From Spirochaetae bacterium HGW-Spirochaetae-3 (GTDB lineage Bacteria; Spirochaetota; Spirochaetia; Treponematales; UBA12059): DNA of 64,000 nt. Position 1 is the first letter of the stretch. Each line of letters starts with the position of its first letter. Shown here one piece after another: positions 27,540 through 35,347 of this stretch. The stretch lies in assembly GCA_002839315.1 (NCBI GenBank), contig PGXV01000009.1, forward strand, positions 130,202-194,201. The letters are read 5' to 3'. A model generated the notes under the pieces. That model worked only from the letters and a program-made list of their open reading frames with translations, was not told the origin of the DNA and searched no databases. The position numbers and the translations under genes were made by a program.

Positions 27540-28670
27540 CTACTCCGGGAGCCCGCCGTCTTCGTCGTCCGGCGCCCGCCGCCTTGCCTTGCCGTACAGC
27601 TTCCCGAAGATATCGACGCTCGAGAAGAACATGACGATGAGGATAGGGCCCAGGATCAACCCGTTTACCCCGAACGCCTCTATGCCGCCTATTATCGAGA
27701 TGAAGATAAGCAGGGGGTGTAGCTTTATGCGCGAGTGGAGCAGCAGCGGCCGTACGAAGTTATCCAGGCTGGATATGAGGACGGCGCAGAGCGCGAACAA
27801 GAGGACGGCCTGCGCCAACGGCCCGGTGGCCAGGCGCAGCAGCACGACCGGGAACCAGACGATGCTGGCGCCGGCTATGGGCACGATGCTAGCCACGGCG
27901 CACATGAGCGCCAGCGGGATAGGGGCCGGGACGCGCATGATAGAGAACACGATGAACGCCATCACCCCCTGGAACGCGGCCATGAGCGCGTAGCCTATGA
28001 CGAGGTCCCTGCCGGTATCCCTGAACTTGCGCATGAAGCCGACCGTGTACGCGTTGCGCAGCGGTATCGCGTCCATGAGCATCAGCATCAGCTCCTTGCC
28101 GTCTACGTACAGGAAGAACAGCACGAACGCGAAGAACGCCAGCTGCAGCGCTAGCCCGGCGACGTTGCGGATGGCGCCGGCCGACAGGCTTATGATCCGC
28201 TCGGCGTAGCCTCCGAGCAGCGACGACGCCTGTCCGGCCAGGTCGACGCCCCCCGCGTCGATCGCGCCCCCCGATATCTCGGAGAGCCTCGCCGCCATGC
28301 GCGCCGCGCCGTCGCCCCGGAAGAAGCGCTCGCCCTGGGCCAGCAGGTCCATGGCGACGCGGAACAGCTCCTTGAGCTGGCCTATCATGGCCAGGGACAG
28401 CAGCGCGACCGGCAGGACGATCAGCGCCATCGAGCCCACGGCGAAGCCGGCCGCCAGCAGCGAGCGCGCCTTCCTGCCGCGCGGCCCGCCGCCCTTGCGC
28501 GTCGCGGCCATACGGTACAGCGGTTGCGTCAGCCCGTATACGACGCTGGCCCACAGCAGGATAGAGAAGAACGGCCTGACCAGCACGGCTATCATCGCGA
28601 AGAGCGCCGCGAACAGCGCGAGGAAGAGTATTCGCTGGACCTTGATCCCCTCGGAGTTTTCCTTGACCAT
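27540..28670 (-). CDS. AI-2E family transporter
   Basis: Multiple TM helices; IPIAG..IVWFP, DNFVRP, LHPLL, FGVNGLILGP. Confidence 0.9.
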   Translation of the reverse strand: MVKENSEGIKVQRILFLALFAALFAMIAVLVRPFFSILLWASVVYGLTQPLYRMAATRKGGGPRGRKARSLLAAGFAVGSMALIVLPVALLSLAMIGQLKELFRVAMDLLAQGERFFRGDGAARMAARLSEISGGAIDAGGVDLAGQASSLLGGYAERIISLSAGAIRNVAGLALQLAFFAFVLFFLYVDGKELMLMLMDAIPLRNAYTVGFMRKFRDTGRDLVIGYALMAAFQGVMAFIVFSIMRVPAPIPLALMCAVASIVPIAGASIVWFPVVLLRLATGPLAQAVLLFALCAVLISSLDNFVRPLLLHSRIKLHPLLIFISIIGGIEAFGVNGLILGPILIVMFFSSVDIFGKLYGKARRRAPDDEDGGLPE

Positions 28671-28776
28671 CGATATGCCCCCGGTCGACTCTAGCACGAC
28701 TAGCCCCGCCGCGCCATGTTACCGGCGCGACGCGCCATTGACCGACGGCGGGCGTAATTATTACTATCGTCCCACT

Positions 28777-30564
28777 ATGATTACCCCAGACCAGCTACGA
28801 ACCAAATATCTGGACTTCTTCAAGTCGAAGGACCACGCGGTCATCTCCGGCAAGTCGCTGCTGCCCGAGAACGATCCTACCGTGCTGTTCACCACCGCGG
28901 GCATGCACCCGCTGGTGCCGTACCTGCTCGGCGAGAGCCATCCCGCCGGCAAGCGCCTGGTCGACTACCAGAAATGCGTGCGCACCGGCGACATCGACGA
29001 GGTCGGGGATCCCGCGCACCTGACCTGCTTCGAGATGCTCGGCAACTGGTCCCTCGGCGACTACTTCAAGAAGGACTCCATAGCGTACTCGTGGGAATTC
29101 CTGACGTCCGGGGACTGGCTGGCGCTCGACCCGCGCAAGCTGTCCGTGACGGTGTTCATGGGCGACGACAACGCGCCGCGCGACGACGAGTCGGCGACGC
29201 ACTGGAAGTCCGTCGGCATGCCCGATGACCGCATCGCCTACCTGCCCGCCAGCGACAACTGGTGGGCGGCCGGCCCGACGGGTCCATGCGGCCCCGATAC
29301 GGAGATATTCTACTGGGTCGGCGACGGGCTCCCCCCCGCGGGCTCCAACAAGGGTACCGACCCCGCCAACTGGATGGAGATATGGAATAACGTCTTCATG
29401 CAGTTCAACCGCGTCGACGAACGGACCCTGGTCAAGCTACCCGCGCAGAACGTCGACACCGGCATGGGCCTCGAGCGTACCGTCACCGTGCTCAACGGCA
29501 AGACGAGCGTCTACCAGACCGAGATATTCCAGCCCATCATAGCCGCGATCGAGCACGTGTCGGGCTACGCGTACGGGACCGACCCGGCCAAGGACGCTTC
29601 CGTGCGCATCATCGCCGACCACGTCCGCGCGTCTACCTTCATCATAGGCGACCCCAAGGGCGTGTCCCCGTCCAACGTCGGGGCGGGCTACGTCGTCCGC
29701 CGCCTGATACGGCGCGCGGTGCGCCACGGCAAGAAGCTCGGCATAGAGGGCTCCTTCCTCGCCGGCCCCGCGATGATAGTCATCGAGCGCTTCGGCGGCG
29801 CCTACCCCGAGCTCGTGGAGAACCGCGCCCGCGTGCTCAAGGAGCTGGAGCGCGAGGAGGCCAAATTCCTCGAGACCCTGCAGAAGGGCGAGCACGAATT
29901 CGAGAAGATGCTGCCCAACCTGCTGCGCAACCCGCAGAAGATCATGTCGGGCCGGCTCGCGTTCAAGCTGTACGACACCTACGGCTTCCCGATAGAGCTG
30001 ACCGACGAGCTCGCCTCCGAGAACGGCATGAAAGTAAACAGGCCCGAGTTCGACGAGGCCTTCAAGAAGCACCAGGAGCTATCGCGCGCCGGCGCCGAGC
30101 AGACCTTCAAGGGAGGCCTGGCCGACCAGTCCGAGCAGACGACCAAGTACCATACGGCGACCCACCTCCTGCAGAAGGCGCTGCGCATGGTGCTCGGCGA
30201 CCACGTCGCGCAGAAGGGCTCGAATATCACCGTCGAGCGCATGCGCTTCGACTTCGCGCATCCCGCCCCGATGACGGCCGACGAGGTCGCGCGGGTGCAG
30301 GCCATCGTCAACGAGCAGATAGCCCGCGACCTCCCGGTGACGATGGAGATGATGGGCCTCGAGGACGCCAAGGCCTCGGGCGCGACGGCGCTGTTCGGCG
30401 AGAAGTACGAATCCGTCGTCAAGGTATACACGATAGGCGACTTCAGCAAGGAAGTCTGCGGCGGCCCCCACGTGGAGCGCACCGGCCTCCTCGGGAAGTT
30501 CGTCATCCAGAAGGAACAGAGCTCGTCCGCCGGCGTCCGGCGCATACGGGCGGTCCTGGAGTAG
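28777..30564 (+). CDS. alaS: Alanine--tRNA ligase (short form without C-Ala domain)
   Basis: DPTVLFTTAGMHP, FEMLGNWS, DTGMGLER, editing HTATH and CGGPH; 595 aa from MITPDQ. Confidence 0.97.
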   Translation: MITPDQLRTKYLDFFKSKDHAVISGKSLLPENDPTVLFTTAGMHPLVPYLLGESHPAGKRLVDYQKCVRTGDIDEVGDPAHLTCFEMLGNWSLGDYFKKDSIAYSWEFLTSGDWLALDPRKLSVTVFMGDDNAPRDDESATHWKSVGMPDDRIAYLPASDNWWAAGPTGPCGPDTEIFYWVGDGLPPAGSNKGTDPANWMEIWNNVFMQFNRVDERTLVKLPAQNVDTGMGLERTVTVLNGKTSVYQTEIFQPIIAAIEHVSGYAYGTDPAKDASVRIIADHVRASTFIIGDPKGVSPSNVGAGYVVRRLIRRAVRHGKKLGIEGSFLAGPAMIVIERFGGAYPELVENRARVLKELEREEAKFLETLQKGEHEFEKMLPNLLRNPQKIMSGRLAFKLYDTYGFPIELTDELASENGMKVNRPEFDEAFKKHQELSRAGAEQTFKGGLADQSEQTTKYHTATHLLQKALRMVLGDHVAQKGSNITVERMRFDFAHPAPMTADEVARVQAIVNEQIARDLPVTMEMMGLEDAKASGATALFGEKYESVVKVYTIGDFSKEVCGGPHVERTGLLGKFVIQKEQSSSAGVRRIRAVLE

Positions 30565-30570
30565 CGTCAA

Positions 30571-31272
30571 CGACACGACGCCCCGGGACGGGATCCACGA
30601 CACGACGCCCCGGGACGGGTTCGGGAATTCAGAAAGGCCTCGTTAATCATCTCGGAGGGGCCTGACCATGGATAAACGGCCATCGCTGCGCGACGGCGCG
30701 TTTTCCATGGTCACCCTCCTCCGCGTGCATGCGAGGCTTGTTAGGAACAAGGGTTAAGGGGCGTCGTGTCGTGCCTTTGGCGCGGGAAGATAGGGACCCA
30801 CGACGCCTCGGGACGGGTTCGGGATCACTGTAAGGCCTTTGTTAATCATGACGGCGGGGCCTGACCATGGATAAACGGCCATCGCTGCGCGACGGCGCGT
30901 TTTCCATGGTCACCCTCCTCCGCGTGCATGCGGGGCCTGTTAGGAACAAAGGTTAAGGGGCGTCGTGTCGTGCCTTTAGCGCGGGTAAGATAGGGACCCA
31001 CGACGCCCCGGGACGGGTTCGGGAATTCTGAAAGGCCTCGTTAATCATCTCGGGGGGCCTGTCATACGAAAATGGCCTTCGCTGCGCGAAGGTCGATTTT
31101 CTTATGACACCCTCCTCCGCGTGCATGCGAGGGCTTTGGTGCGGAAGATAGGGTATCGGGTGCACTACTGCCGGCTCGCGAGACGCCGCCGTTGACCTGC
31201 GAGCGCAACGAGTCAGGTCGAACGACGGCTAGCGATCGCCGCGCCAGTCGGCGATCGCGGCTTTTGCGCGGG
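30571..31272. repeat. Tandem array of ~200-bp structured repeats (units start at 30601, 30799, 30999) plus trailing hairpin modules
   Basis: Units share CACGACGCCYCGGGACGGGTTCGGGA...GTTAATCAT...CCTG[hairpin]CACCCTCCTCCGCGTGCATGCG...AAGATAGGG. Inverted ends CGACACGACGCCCC / GGGGCGTCGTGTCG. Confidence 0.92.
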
Positions 31273-31390
31273 TGAGTATCAGCTGCGTGGATCAAGGCTC
31301 GGGGGTAGGGGAGAAGCGTATGAAGGATTTAGTGGAACAGGGGACGAGCGGTTCAGCTACCCATCTGTCGATCCGCTAGTCCACTCGGGG

Positions 31391-32338
31391 CTACTGCAAG
31401 CCGCGGTGTGCATCTTTCGCGAACAAGGGCTGCGATTCCCAGTCTCCTGGAAATCCGAGAGATGGCAACTGCCCGGGACGTAGTCTCGCTATGAGCGAAC
31501 GTAGCGTATCGTCGATACGTACTTCTGGCGATGCCGCTCGTAGAAGTTTTACCACGATGCAGAGCGATGCATAGATTCGGTTGTGGTTTGGCCAGTAATC
31601 CACCCATGGCGGGGTGCTTCCGGTCGGGAAGATCGGGGTTACTTTTAGAATCCTGCTGAAAAGCCTGCCATGATGAGCGCAGATATTACGCACGAGATTG
31701 AGGTGGTGGAACCAGTTGACGAGCACCTTGGTCGATGCGCGAGAGAAGCCCCAGAATCCGGCTATTCTCTGCTTGCAGGGCAAGGCGAGATTCAAATTAC
31801 TATAATACCTTGAAAGTATTCCAAGCGATGTCGTCTCAAGGATTTTCCAGGCCGGGGGAGGATCATTATCGTCGTATGTACTCTTATGATGCTCGACGAA
31901 TACTTCCTTGGACCTTTCCCAATCGGCGTAGAGGTCCTTGATATCTCTAGACCATGCCGCGCGATTGAAAAAGAGCGATGAATCCGCATACCACCGCGCT
32001 CCATGATCCAAGGAAACCTGGAGGACGAGCTGGGTTCTCAATGAGACCTCGACTCGCTCTATCGCATCGAATACGAGAGCGCGAAGATCGCGATCGAATT
32101 CGTAGTCATACTGTATCCAGTTCCATTGCGCGCCATCGAAGAATGGCGTGTCGGGGAGGGTATTGTCCTGGTACGGGTAGGTGTAACCTCGCCAGCGATA
32201 GTAGCTTACTCGACCGAGAACGGCGATTAAATCGGGCTTGGCTATGCCTTGAAGTCCCCTGTTAAGTAGGAGGTCGGCTTGCGCTTCTAGAGGAAGCGGC
32301 GGCTTAGCGTAGATCGGCTTTGATGTATTATCAGACAA
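31391..32338 (-). CDS. Abi-like (AbiD/AbiF, Abi_2) HEPN protein
   Basis: KPPL..E.Q..LL..RGL, VSYYR, Y.FDRDLR....AIERVEVSLR, PPAW..LE..SLG, HEPN RxxxxH (RNICAH). TTG start with GAGGA RBS; lower GC than flanks. Confidence 0.9.
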   Translation of the reverse strand: MSDNTSKPIYAKPPLPLEAQADLLLNRGLQGIAKPDLIAVLGRVSYYRWRGYTYPYQDNTLPDTPFFDGAQWNWIQYDYEFDRDLRALVFDAIERVEVSLRTQLVLQVSLDHGARWYADSSLFFNRAAWSRDIKDLYADWERSKEVFVEHHKSTYDDNDPPPAWKILETTSLGILSRYYSNLNLALPCKQRIAGFWGFSRASTKVLVNWFHHLNLVRNICAHHGRLFSRILKVTPIFPTGSTPPWVDYWPNHNRIYASLCIVVKLLRAASPEVRIDDTLRSLIARLRPGQLPSLGFPGDWESQPLFAKDAHRGLQ

Positions 32339-32360
32339 GGGTAGATCCTCGCCTTAGGGC

Positions 32361-32414
32361 AAAAAAAGAACCCCTCTGGGTGCGCTTGCGAGCAGAGGCG
32401 CGAGGGGTCTCGTT
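32361..32414 (-). ncRNA. Candidate abiF-type leader / antitoxin RNA
   Basis: GACCCCTC-GCGCCTCTGCTCGCAAGCGCACCCA-GAGGGGTTC-T7, between the promoter and the abi RBS. The architecture resembles, from memory, the abiF RNA motif. Confidence 0.65.
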
Positions 32415-32420
32415 ACCCAG

Positions 32421-32449
32421 ACTATACAGCATGCCGGAGCTATCTACAA
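32421..32449 (-). promoter_or_regulatory. Sigma-70 promoter for the ncRNA-abi unit
   Basis: Minus strand TTGTAG-N17-TATAGT. Confidence 0.65.
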
Positions 32450-32510
32450 GGCTATTCATACATACTAATAGGGCTAAGTGTAGGCTCATACGGGCTGGTG
32501 TCAAGGAAAA

Positions 32511-32745
32511 GATCCACGACGCGACGCCCCGGGACGGGTTCGGGAATTCAGAAAGGCCTCGTTAATCATCTCGGAGGGGCCTGTCATACGAAAATGGCCT
32601 TCGCTGCGGGCTAGCGATCGCCACGCCAGTCGGCGATCGCGGCTTTTGCGCGGGTAAGATAGGGTGTCGGGTGCCCGATAGTGTAACTGAACCACTGAAC
32701 CCCTTCTTCTAGCCTGGCGTCGTGTCGTACCTATGGCGCGGAGGA
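32511..32745. repeat. Fourth, mosaic copy of the ~200-bp repeat
   Basis: Left half of unit 3 fused to the GCTAGCGATCGCC...GGCGATCGCGGCTTTTGCGCGGGT module; right end GGCGTCGTGTCG at 32716-32727. Confidence 0.88.
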
Positions 32746-32795
32746 AGTGATCCGTTATCTGTAATCAGTGACCACGATACCGTATCTTCCACAGA

Positions 32796-33299
32796 TCACA
32801 GGTCACTCTTCATCTTCCGCAACAGCTGCACGGCGGTCTTGCCGTCCTCGCGGACGAGCCTGAGCGTCAGCTCGCCTTCGCCGGCGGCCTTGGTCCACCA
32901 GGCCTCGCGGGCGAACCACTCTATGGAATCGGCTAGCCAACCGTCGACGGCTGGGCCCTCGACGTCGGCGGGCTTGCGGTCCTGGGTAAAGAGGTACTGG
33001 CCTGGTTCCAGCCGTTCCGCGTCGGAGGTGGCGTCCCCGGAGTCGGCGTCTCCGGGGGGGGCGATGAGGCCGGACGCGGCGATCCTGGCGGGCGGGGGCA
33101 GGGGGCGCCTGGCGGAGGGGCCGTCGTCGCAGGCGGGATCGACGAGCGCGTCCCAGTCCCACGCCATGGTCAGCTCGGAGCCCTCGGGGGCTTTCGCGAT
33201 GGCCTCTATCGCGTCGGTCGGGGAGCGGACGGCGGCGCGTTCGGCTTGGCTACGGTACCATTCCAGCCGTTTGTGCAGGTTGAGCGTCAGTAGTGTCAT
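32796..33299 (-). CDS. Hypothetical protein
   Basis: Host-like codon usage; CATACT box 6 nt before the ATG. Confidence 0.6.
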   Translation of the reverse strand: MTLLTLNLHKRLEWYRSQAERAAVRSPTDAIEAIAKAPEGSELTMAWDWDALVDPACDDGPSARRPLPPPARIAASGLIAPPGDADSGDATSDAERLEPGQYLFTQDRKPADVEGPAVDGWLADSIEWFAREAWWTKAAGEGELTLRLVREDGKTAVQLLRKMKSDL

Positions 33300-33370
33300 T
33301 ACGGCAGTATGTAGGCTTTTGCGGTCCGGGTATAGTCCCGTAGACGTTCAGCGTGATAGACTAGGGCCTC

Positions 33371-35347
33371 ATGTCAATCCTGGAACGCGTCGGGAGCCCC
33401 GACGATATAAAGCGCCTGTCGGTCCGCGAGCTGTATAGGCTCGCCGCCGAGATACGCGGCCTTATCATCTCTACGGTCACCGTCAACGGCGGCCATCTCG
33501 CGTCCAACCTCGGCGTCGTCGAATTGACGCTGGCCCTGCATCGCGTGTTCGATACGCCGCGGGACTCGATCGTGTGGGACGTCGGCCATCAGAGCTATAC
33601 GCACAAGATCATCACGGGCCGATTGGGCTCGTTCCGACAGATCAGGCGTTCCGGGGGCTTGTCCGGCTTCCCGAAGCGTTCGGAGAGCGTCCATGACGCG
33701 TTCGACGCCGGGCACGCGTCGACGTCTATATCGGCGGCGCTCGGCCTGCTGGCCGCGAACGCCAGGCTCGGCGACCCGGGATCGGTCATAGCGGTCATCG
33801 GGGACGGCGCCCTGACCGGCGGCATGGCCTACGAGGCGATGAGCCACGCCGGCCAGCTCGGCCTGCCCTTGATCGTCGTGCTCAACGATAACGCCATGTC
33901 CATATCCCGCAACGTCGGCGCCGTCTCCAGGTACCTCTCGCGCCTGTCCGCGACCGTCCGCTACCAGAAGATCCGGCGCCTCGTCGACAAGGTCATCCTC
34001 GGCGTACCGTACTTCGGCCCGCATCTGCATCCGATAGTGCTGAGGATAAAGCGCGCCGCCAAGGCTATATTCTTCAAGGAGAGCCTGTTCTCCGACCTGG
34101 GCTTCGAGTATGCGGGGCCGATCGACGGTCATAATATACAGGTGCTTACCGACGTATTCGCCCAGGCCAGGGCTATCCGCAAGCCGGTCGTCGTCCACGT
34201 CGTTACCAAGAAGGGCAAGGGGCACCCCGCGGCCGAGCTGAATCCCGCGGCCTTCCATGGCGTGTCGCCTGAAATACAGTCGTCGCCTGCAGTACAGTCG
34301 TCGCCTGAAATACAGTCGTCCGATCCTCTGGATCCGGCCGGGGCCCCCGCGGCGAAGCGCCCGACCTTCACCGCGGCCTTCGGCCGGGCGATGGTCGCGG
34401 CGGCGGCGGCCGATCCTCGGGTCGTCGGCGTGACCGCCGCGATGTCATCCGGCACCGGGCTAGGCGATTTCCAGAGGGCCTATCCGGCGAGGTTCTTCGA
34501 CGTAGGCATTGCCGAGGAGCACGCGGTGACCTTCGCGGCCGGCATGGCCGCCGGCGGCCTCAGGCCCGTCGTCGCCATCTATTCTACCTTTATGCAGCGG
34601 GTCTTCGACCAGGTCCACCACGACGTCGCGCTCGAGGGGCTGCCCGTCGTGTTCGCGCTGGACAGGGCGGGCGCCGTCCCCGACGACGGCGAGACCCACC
34701 AGGGTATATACGATATCCAGGCCTACAGGGCCGTGCCCGGCCTGGCGATCATCGCTCCGGCCAGCGCATCCGAGCTCGATCAGGCGTTGCGATGGGCGCT
34801 CTCCGCGTCCGGTCCGACGATGATTCGCTATCCCAAGGCCGTATGCCCGCCCGAGCGGCCGGTGTACGCGGAACCGTTCGTCGCCGGCAAGGGCGTATTC
34901 GTCCGAAAGAGCGATTCGGCCGCTTCGATACTGTTCGTCGCGTCGGGCGCGCTGGTCGACGAATCCCTGCGCGCCGCCACCGCCTGCGCCTCCTCCGGCG
35001 TCGCTGCCGACGTCTACCACCTGCGCTTCCTGAAGCCGGTAGATACGGCCGCCTTCGTCGAGGTAGCCCGGCGCTACGGCCTCGTCGTGATAGCCGAGGA
35101 AGGCGTGCTGACCGGCAGCGTAGCATCCGATCTCGCCGCCGCGGTTATCGCCGCGGGAGGCGATACCAAGGCTGTCGCGCTCGGCTTCGACGAGCGCCCG
35201 CTGCCCCAGGCCCGGCGCGAGGAACTGCTCTCCGCGGCAGGCCTGTCCGCCTCGGGACTCGCGGTGACGGCGCTTTCGGCCATGGCCGCCAGCGCGATCG
35301 CCATCGGCGCCAGGAACGCCGGAGCCTCCTCGAGGAGCGGCGCCTGA
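33371..35347 (+). CDS. dxs: 1-deoxy-D-xylulose-5-phosphate synthase
   Basis: GGHLASNLG, WDVGHQSY, GDGALTGG, DVGIAEEHA, DGETHQG. Confidence 0.97.
   Translation: MSILERVGSPDDIKRLSVRELYRLAAEIRGLIISTVTVNGGHLASNLGVVELTLALHRVFDTPRDSIVWDVGHQSYTHKIITGRLGSFRQIRRSGGLSGFPKRSESVHDAFDAGHASTSISAALGLLAANARLGDPGSVIAVIGDGALTGGMAYEAMSHAGQLGLPLIVVLNDNAMSISRNVGAVSRYLSRLSATVRYQKIRRLVDKVILGVPYFGPHLHPIVLRIKRAAKAIFFKESLFSDLGFEYAGPIDGHNIQVLTDVFAQARAIRKPVVVHVVTKKGKGHPAAELNPAAFHGVSPEIQSSPAVQSSPEIQSSDPLDPAGAPAAKRPTFTAAFGRAMVAAAAADPRVVGVTAAMSSGTGLGDFQRAYPARFFDVGIAEEHAVTFAAGMAAGGLRPVVAIYSTFMQRVFDQVHHDVALEGLPVVFALDRAGAVPDDGETHQGIYDIQAYRAVPGLAIIAPASASELDQALRWALSASGPTMIRYPKAVCPPERPVYAEPFVAGKGVFVRKSDSAASILFVASGALVDESLRAATACASSGVAADVYHLRFLKPVDTAAFVEVARRYGLVVIAEEGVLTGSVASDLAAAVIAAGGDTKAVALGFDERPLPQARREELLSAAGLSASGLAVTALSAMAASAIAIGARNAGASSRSGA

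Follow-up and report, generated by a model that had tools for sequence, protein, structure and literature searches.

Does a gene for a HEPN ribonuclease of the abortive infection (Abi) type that lies among long palindromic repeats form one system with those repeats? The question is raised by the interval between the convergent genes alaS and ORF167 of the spirochaete Spirochaetae bacterium HGW-Spirochaetae-3, within a stretch of 64,000 nucleotides of contig PGXV01000009.1 (the window; G000:C5:130202-194201, where G000 is the present genome); coordinates given without a contig are those of the window. The original prediction, made from the letters of the window, had offered two possibilities: a repeat-mediated capture system that carries defense cassettes, or a HEPN effector paired with an array of long structured RNAs. 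Our analysis leads to a different answer. The gene probably belongs to an AbiF type III toxin-antitoxin cassette that was horizontally acquired and inserted in a pre-existing patch of repeats resembling inverted-repeat transposable elements of miniature size (MITEs) and ERIC sequences, gene and repeats being neighbors and not one system. On this reading, the repeats do not supply the toxin with its partner RNA, nor are they machinery dedicated to capture.

The abi gene (31391 to 32338, minus strand; 315 amino acids from a TTG start) matched the Pfam family Abi_2 (PF07751, E = 4.9e-43, 148 bits against a cutoff of 25.6) and the PADLOC family AbiD (5.9e-55), and its product aligned over the full length with the PDB chain 8vz6_A (E = 9.7e-37, query residues 12 to 306 on chain residues 9 to 299). 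The HEPN Rx4-6H motif is present as RNICAH at residues 217 to 222; it aligns with RNSCCH of 8vz6_A and is invariant in the homolog from G022, a genome of another genus that encodes the closest Abi relative found in a genome. These matches bear out the AbiD/AbiF HEPN identity proposed earlier, and the background invoked with it (an AbiF ribonuclease, control by a small RNA, kinship with Cas13) agrees with PMC12737573, Saunier et al. (bioRxiv 10.1101/2025.04.15.648962), and PMC13064643. In these texts AbiF is described as a ribonuclease toxin that is bound and silenced by a small RNA, and AbiF proteins as binding structured RNAs and as related to Cas13 (PMC12737573), and the system as a type III toxin-antitoxin. 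The present protein is the same ~300-amino-acid Abi_2 HEPN protein, with full-length homology, as in the AbiF/AbiFr systems PbAbiF-ncRNA (PDB 8VZ6) and AbiF_Cd-RCd22 of C. difficile phi027.

The second component expected of such a system lies upstream of abi on the same strand. An abiF-type hairpin (32370 to 32407) runs straight into a T-rich tract (32361 to 32370) with seven consecutive T at 32361 to 32367; the whole element (32361 to 32407) ends 22 nt ahead of the abi start codon, and a GAGGA ribosome-binding site precedes the TTG start at 32338. Farther upstream, a promoter-like −35 TTGTAG and −10 TATAGT with a 17-nt spacer (32421 to 32449, minus strand) were read by eye and do not appear in the output of a promoter scan; the hexamers align with equivalents in three other Abi loci. 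The same hairpin and T-run occur at the same distance upstream of the Abi genes of G022 (69% amino acid identity) and of two metagenome contigs, L103 (70%) and L104 (65%, with two hairpin copies). In the alignment of these five copies from four sources, 45 of the 47 leader columns are invariant, while the proteins are merely 65 to 70% identical. An upstream RNA better conserved than the protein also agrees with PMC13064643, where conservation is described as higher in the regions upstream of such Abi genes than in the genes themselves.

The arrangement likewise resembles that outlined by Saunier et al., in which a promoter is followed by an RNA of ~100 nt with abiF motifs (RF03085), a terminator, and the toxin gene. 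Here, as in AbiF/AbiFr, promoter, short structured RNA, U-run, and gene lie on one strand. RCd22 has two abiF motifs according to the same source, whereas the present leader has one hairpin. RF03085 matched 32370 to 32407 on the minus strand over model positions 1 to 37 of 37; the match has 25 bits, while the gathering score is 37 (E = 0.015, 221 nt searched); in a search of 28000 to 35000 with Rfam 15 on both strands (E ≤ 1), neither this hairpin nor anything else was matched, and abiF surfaced only in the 221-nt search. With an Abi_2 gene that is less closely related but belongs to the same genus (G004, L035), RF03085 scored 37.1 bits, at the gathering score. The other differences from the characterized systems are that the present host is an uncultured groundwater spirochaete and that the location of the module is a patch of repeats in the chromosome, not a prophage or plasmid. 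The locus adds a spirochaete example of AbiF with a hairpin RNA, the RNA being far better conserved than the protein, and the hairpin variant should help to broaden the abiF RNA model, by which it goes unnoticed at the curated threshold.

Taken with the protein matches, the leader indicates that the abi module is most likely a defense cassette of the AbiF/AbiD type III toxin-antitoxin class, with the toxin activity ascribed by analogy to characterized homologs. The hairpin is the presumed antitoxin RNA and attenuator of abi. In the mechanism that we propose, the promoter of abi itself would drive a short leader that folds into the abiF-type hairpin followed by a U-run; this hairpin RNA would most likely attenuate read-through into abi and also bind and silence the HEPN ribonuclease. 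Phage infection would upset this balance, so that the freed ribonuclease cuts RNA and the infection is aborted. Both the production of the leader RNA and the neutralization of the toxin by it are inferred from homologs.

The closest relatives of the cassette lie in surroundings of another kind. In G022 (L033, G022:C119), the abi module is placed between DUF3780 and DUF1156 genes. A search for related loci in genome contigs with Abi gave 64 pattern matches, of which none was confirmed, and the corresponding metagenome scan gave 142, of which two loci (L103 and L104) were confirmed, both free of the repeat; the ~200-bp repeat was not found in L033, L103, or L104 by nhmmer at E ≤ 1. In L104, the second hairpin copy occupies the first 47 bases of the contig, and an apparent 5′ fragment of a DUF1156 gene, seen by eye upstream of abi, suggests a local duplication. 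In addition, at least two contigs of a sequencing run from another study (X5) carry the abiF-type hairpin and U-run between unrelated flanks, their match being confined to 32360 to 32414; in that community, therefore, the abiF-type RNA element also serves loci other than this one.

These data bear directly on the proposal that the HEPN ribonuclease has long repeat RNAs as its partner, be it in the form of an antitoxin array that is processed or of a guide array like that of Cas13. The units adjoin abi and are strongly structured, as would suit a protein family that binds structured RNAs and is related to Cas13. However, they lie on the strand opposite abi, numerous genomes and places have them but no Abi, and it is the abiF-type hairpin that is kept in all four Abi sources, three of which have no units. 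The units are also joined head to tail without spacers, whereas a CRISPR array has unique spacers between its repeats. We regard this proposal as highly improbable.

What, then, are the repeats? On the plus strand, unit 1 (30594 to 30792; 196.4 bits with the covariance model described below) is followed by unit 2 (30793 to 30992; 92% identical to unit 1) and by unit 3 (30993 to ~31135), in which sequence comparison shows that the central hairpin is a variant and that the right arm is truncated. They are spaced at 198 to 200 nt, and Tandem Repeats Finder reported 30601 to 31134 with a period of 199, 2.7 copies, and 87% matches. The tandem ~200-bp units 3′ of abi were thus confirmed as two full units and a truncated third, and so was a fourth, mosaic unit 5′ of the gene (32513 to 32741). 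The left arm of this unit is 97.7% identical to that of unit 3, its inner modules are also found at 31227 to 31276 (96%) and 31145 to 31163, and a right terminal repeat closes it. The inverted ends that had been thought to bound the whole islet exist (30570 to 30582 and 32716 to 32728; 13 nt, 100% complementary), but every single unit bears them too, and they are hence no sign that the islet is a single element.

A unit consists of a rod-like palindrome of ~175 nt with six helices and a conserved tail of ~20 nt on its 3′ side only; core length varies from 169 to 185 nt, and the inverted ends are perfect over 16 nt. For one unit the folding energy is −106.3 kcal/mol (z = −6.42), a value that none of 200 shuffled sequences attained. 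Twenty-nine units of five genomes served to build a covariance model. Of their cells, 95.6% are paired, compared with 86.0% in shuffled alignments (none of 500 as high as observed) and 42 to 50% in slid ones; both sides vary in 23 of 50 pairs, compared with 4 to 9 when slid. For 17 further units from seven genomes of four genera, none of them used in model building, the values were 92.7% of cells paired (70.8% shuffled, 47 to 52% slid) and 40 of 50 pairs changed on both sides (11 to 19 slid), although this alignment was fitted to the structure of the model, which favors pairing. Between species, the two sides of the terminal stem have changed together and remain complementary.

Such covariation fits a folded RNA, but it fits equally a folded single-stranded DNA or two ends read by one protein. 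On the gene-sense strand, G·U cells outnumber A·C cells 68 to 19, and together with the one-sided 3′ tail this excess speaks for an element with a specific orientation, the simplest case being transcription with the upstream gene; the excess could also stem from strand-biased mutation instead of selection on RNA. The possibility that a unit serves as a terminator was considered and dropped, since G006 and G009 lack the T-run past the central hairpin, which is moreover engaged in pairing inside the stem.

The distribution of the repeat is that of an old and dispersed element. BLAST and nhmmer located it at about 20 places on seven contigs of the present genome, several of them at contig ends. 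By BLAST it is present in 4 of 14 other genomes of the genus and in none of 26 outside it, while the covariance model found matches in 19 of 42 genomes of the family, full-length ones in 15 genomes of five genera (matches in G021, G047, G048, and G022, which comprise the central hairpin only, were not counted). Half of the scorable arrays (16 of 32; another 9 were not scorable for placement) start no more than 33 nt past the stop codon of a long open reading frame (ORF) on the same strand, and in a second set, fetched separately, 12 of 17 do so, compared with 4 of 17 that have an opposite-strand ORF ending on their 3′ side. The genes beside units include alaS and genes for a uvrA-like ABC ATPase and for NUDIX, metallophosphoesterase, DUF362, MFS, RsmE-type methyltransferase, FliW, Rce1-like, and META proteins. 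Some places are common to several species: a unit follows alaS in G006, directly 3′ of the stop codon and without abi, and a uvrA-like gene in G011 and G009. In the window, the first repeat letters begin 2 nt past the alaS stop codon. Being co-oriented with the gene and placed just past its stop codon, a unit is probably transcribed as a 3′-untranslated-region (3′-UTR) rod. If so, it would be an uncatalogued 3′-UTR element of a poorly known bacterial family; the ~200-nt unit had no match in the Rfam 15 search of 28000 to 35000 mentioned above.

In G011, two genes for proteins of 395 and 488 amino acids lie between two units after the uvrA-like gene (G011:C43; L097:1647-4310). Neither belongs to a family in Pfam, PADLOC, or NCBIfam. 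The equivalent place in the present genome is taken by the NUDIX and phosphoesterase genes; their matches to PDC-S07 and PDC-S10, which are PADLOC candidates, were just generic domain ones.

Among known repeats, the units come closest to the ERIC/IRU, Correia, RUP, and MITE-type elements, with which they share a length of 100 to 200 nt, imperfect palindromy with terminal inverted repeats, dozens of intergenic copies, often within transcripts, mosaic and truncated forms, and the breaks that they cause in short-read assemblies. They differ from these elements in that no target-site duplication was seen just outside the stem (the 10 nt on either side of the terminal stem differ in the 23 units, of 30, that were examinable, a check that covered the flanks of the stem) and no insertion sequence found in this genome shares their ends, in the strongly orientation-specific placement after stop codons, in the conserved one-sided tail, and in places kept between species and pairing that covaries across genera. 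Repetitive extragenic palindromic (REP) elements and the bacterial interspersed mosaic elements (BIMEs) built from them are likewise extragenic palindromes that form composite mosaics at gene 3′ ends, as PMC3733652 describes; that text mentions proposed roles in mRNA stability and termination and reports CGTC-type families without a dedicated transposase in Spirochaetes. However, REPs, whether GTAG- or CGTC-tagged, are 20 to 40 nt long and go with a RAYT, whereas the units have ~195 nt and six helices, and the Y1_Tnp locus of the present genome has no units. Our search of the literature on spirochaete intergenic repeats returned general MITE and REP papers only and none on the present repeat family.

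The earlier statement that no transposase or integrase is adjacent held up when the neighboring genes were checked: they encode a GAF/HD protein, an AI-2E transporter, AlaRS, ORF167, Dxs, and FolP, with no recombinase among them. In this genome, all 31 matches to the 14-nt unit end (at most one mismatch) are units or singletons, no pair of them encloses a gene, and no insertion sequence with unit ends was found; the one gene for a Y1 transposase has no units beside it. The genome does encode an integron integrase (G000:C4:1340-2281; TIGR02249, 436.6 bits against a cutoff of 265), located at a low-GC contig start (C4:1-2839, L131) with attC-like imperfect palindromes on its 3′ side. Related attC-like sites lie at the end of contig C13 (C13:254328-256659), at C8:166288-166398, and at C3:3219-3261; probably an integron cassette array has been split by the assembly.

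The presence of this integrase suggests that the units might be attC-like sites and abi an integron-type cassette moved by it; in addition, attC sites, like the units, are structured imperfect palindromes that directly follow ORFs in a fixed orientation. Yet the attC-like sites of the genome have nothing in common with the units beyond chance 11-mers, and the AAC/GTT core pair is not present at unit ends. Core genes, alaS among them, are followed by units, and this holds at places that are orthologous in several species; abi is antisense to the units, which is the wrong orientation for a cassette, and intI is on another contig. The usual length range of attC sites is also exceeded by the ~175-nt unit core. 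That the units are attC-like sites is scarcely credible. With insertion sequence, Y1 transposase, and integron all unlinked to the units, no cognate recombinase was found.

The cassette appears to have come from elsewhere. Its limits can be set at 31332 and 32467 (minus strand), the left one from a second strain in run X5 and the right one from the point at 32468 where repeat homology resumes. The cassette is single copy in the genome by BLAST, and its GC content (0.532; 0.525 for the abi coding sequence) is lower than that of alaS (0.648), dxs (0.674), and ORF167 (0.698), as had been claimed for the cargo relative to its host. No Abi gene is present at the alaS site in any of 14 relatives of the genus, and the Abi_2 genes of three relatives of the same genus are not on the contigs listed with unit matches. 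Low GC, single copy, absence from the site in relatives, and a closest relative in another genus together mark the cassette as apparently gained by horizontal transfer.

The site itself varies widely within the genus. The gap between alaS and ORF167 is empty at 16 to 37 bp in G007, G003, G008, and G014; it holds other repeats or noncoding DNA in G010, G012, and G002 (174 to 631 bp), an Lnb-domain gene in G011 (1.2 kb), and MMPL, TetR, and LolA-like genes in G005 (8 kb). In G006, where the contig ends, ORF167 was not found, and the gap could not be sized, units and a small gene with a weak DUF1284 match follow alaS; in G004, G013, G001, and G009 the gap is broken by the assembly. The gap is a convergent, promoter-free place with a different insert in almost every genome of the genus. 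Empty sites and swapped cargo had been named as things to look for in a comparison of this interval: empty sites and differing inserts are there, no other Abi is, and the G005 and G011 inserts contain no units.

Other strains were assessed on contigs of sequencing runs. In run X5, the cassette is present at ~96% identity over 31332 to 31665 and 31852 to 32515. In run X7, an alaS ~94% alike leads straight into a unit, and there is no counterpart of the 27-nt partial copy of the unit left end that precedes unit 1 in the window (30567 to 30593, 93% identical to 30594 to 30622); the run has no cover on abi, which we do not take as evidence of absence. Joints in runs X1 and X4 that skip 1670, 1545, and 358 nt were considered as alleles without abi and rejected as such, most simply being contigs from other genomic copies of the repeat.

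How did the cassette enter? In repeat-mediated capture, abi together with one unit, on a circle or fragment, would have entered by Campbell-type homologous recombination with a resident unit, leaving direct repeats on both sides; excision of the cassette or an exchange of cargo could take place in this way as well. Several observations fit this account and weigh against reading gene and repeats as mere neighbors. Direct repeats flank the cassette, one pair (31001 to 31086 and 32522 to 32608) 97.7% identical over 87 nt and a second (31227 to 31276 and 32609 to 32658) 96% identical over 50 nt. The strain of run X5 keeps the abi-to-unit junction on the promoter side and has a different repeat module from 31332 on, and in G006 the small gene lies between units after alaS. 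Together, flanking direct repeats, X5 junction, and G006 gene fit an active role of the repeat in gene gain better than coincidence. The reading as neighbors has other weak points, unrelated to capture. In the leader, the abiF match stays below the Rfam gathering score, the hairpin alone folds no better than shuffled sequences (z = −1.30), and it offers no supporting covariation because it is invariant; for the repeat, there are the two reservations given above with the covariation (the fitted alignment of the further units and the possible mutational origin of the G·U excess).

Capture is also favored by the size range and differing genes of the gap within the genus and by mosaic units with recurrent breakpoints in the genome, which show that units recombine. 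Against it, all other unit neighbors examined are housekeeping genes, the G005 and G011 inserts came without units, and the three other Abi sources are free of the repeat. A donor would have needed a family-restricted repeat and yet a much lower GC content, no circle junction was seen in the run contigs (repeat copies elsewhere in the genome account for the skips in X1 and X4), and tandem arrays alone yield flanking direct repeats. We consider capture by this route unlikely.

A related reading, which we hold to be rather improbable, takes the units as more than selfish DNA, namely as a strand-specific functional 3′-UTR RNA rod, kept in at least five genera, whose arrays double as recombination landing pads for the entry and exit of foreign cassettes such as the present abiF module.

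The neighboring of an acquired AbiF cassette and an older repeat remains the probable reading. The repeat would be an old, family-wide, multicopy palindrome of the MITE/ERIC type that colonized the alaS–ORF167 gap before abi came, and the cassette would have landed inside this patch. Since near-identical direct repeats flank it in a patch of mosaic make-up, it may reasonably have entered by recombination at or between units, a plausible but unproven route. As for the two possibilities raised in the original prediction, a HEPN effector with an array of long repeat RNAs is not supported, given the gene's own abiF-type hairpin and repeats that lie on the opposite strand and are absent from the three other Abi sources. 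Nor is a defense-cassette capture system, given the scattering of the repeat beside housekeeping genes throughout genome and family, the three Abi_2 genes in the genus that lie off the contigs listed with unit matches, and the failure to find a cognate recombinase. In substance, two of the three findings that had been named beforehand as refuting were thus observed, the dispersal of the unit and Abi without repeats in relatives. A false lead is removed in this way, as neither a new Cas13-like pairing of a HEPN protein with long RNA nor a new capture machine is present here.

The complete order of elements between alaS and ORF167 is the partial repeat end, units 1 to 3, a group of dispersed modules, the low-GC abi stretch, the mosaic unit, and a hairpin built of 7-base words. 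The modules after unit 3 (31137 to 31276, plus strand) comprise a short 'AAGATAGGG...' module, a hairpin module of ~40 nt, and a GC-rich palindrome, with copies on C3, at the end of C5, and on C9, C11, C13, and C18. At the contig end C5:239843-240500, about twenty tandem hairpin units of ~40 nt, corresponding to the module at 31184 to 31222 of the window, are joined onto units. The final hairpin (32745 to 32795, no strand assigned), with arms of 7-base words, closes several arrays of the genome, the same module being found after arrays on C9 and C17.

Both flanking genes are well kept in the genus. ORF167 (32796 to 33299, minus strand; convergent with alaS) occurs in 14 of 15 genomes and has no family in Pfam, PADLOC, or NCBIfam. 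The alaS gene (28750 to 30564, plus strand, start approximate; Pfam tRNA-synt_2c, 1e-143, and tRNA_SAD) is kept in 15 of 15 genomes and encodes a short alanyl-tRNA synthetase, in which the Pfam domains end at the C-terminus with tRNA_SAD; most full-length alaS frames in relatives have about 600 to 640 amino acids. The typical bacterial AlaRS has a C-terminal part that the present AlaRS seems to lack.

Between the cassette and mosaic unit 4 lies a module that precedes the left end of a unit (32468 to 32512, plus strand; a 69% match to C18:98210-98319). On its minus strand (32477 to 32504), TTGACA and TACACT with a 16-nt spacer face away from the unit, here towards abi, and both hexamers and their spacing are kept in a second copy of the module (G000:C18:98275-98319). 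The module may carry a candidate outward-facing promoter borne by the repeat.

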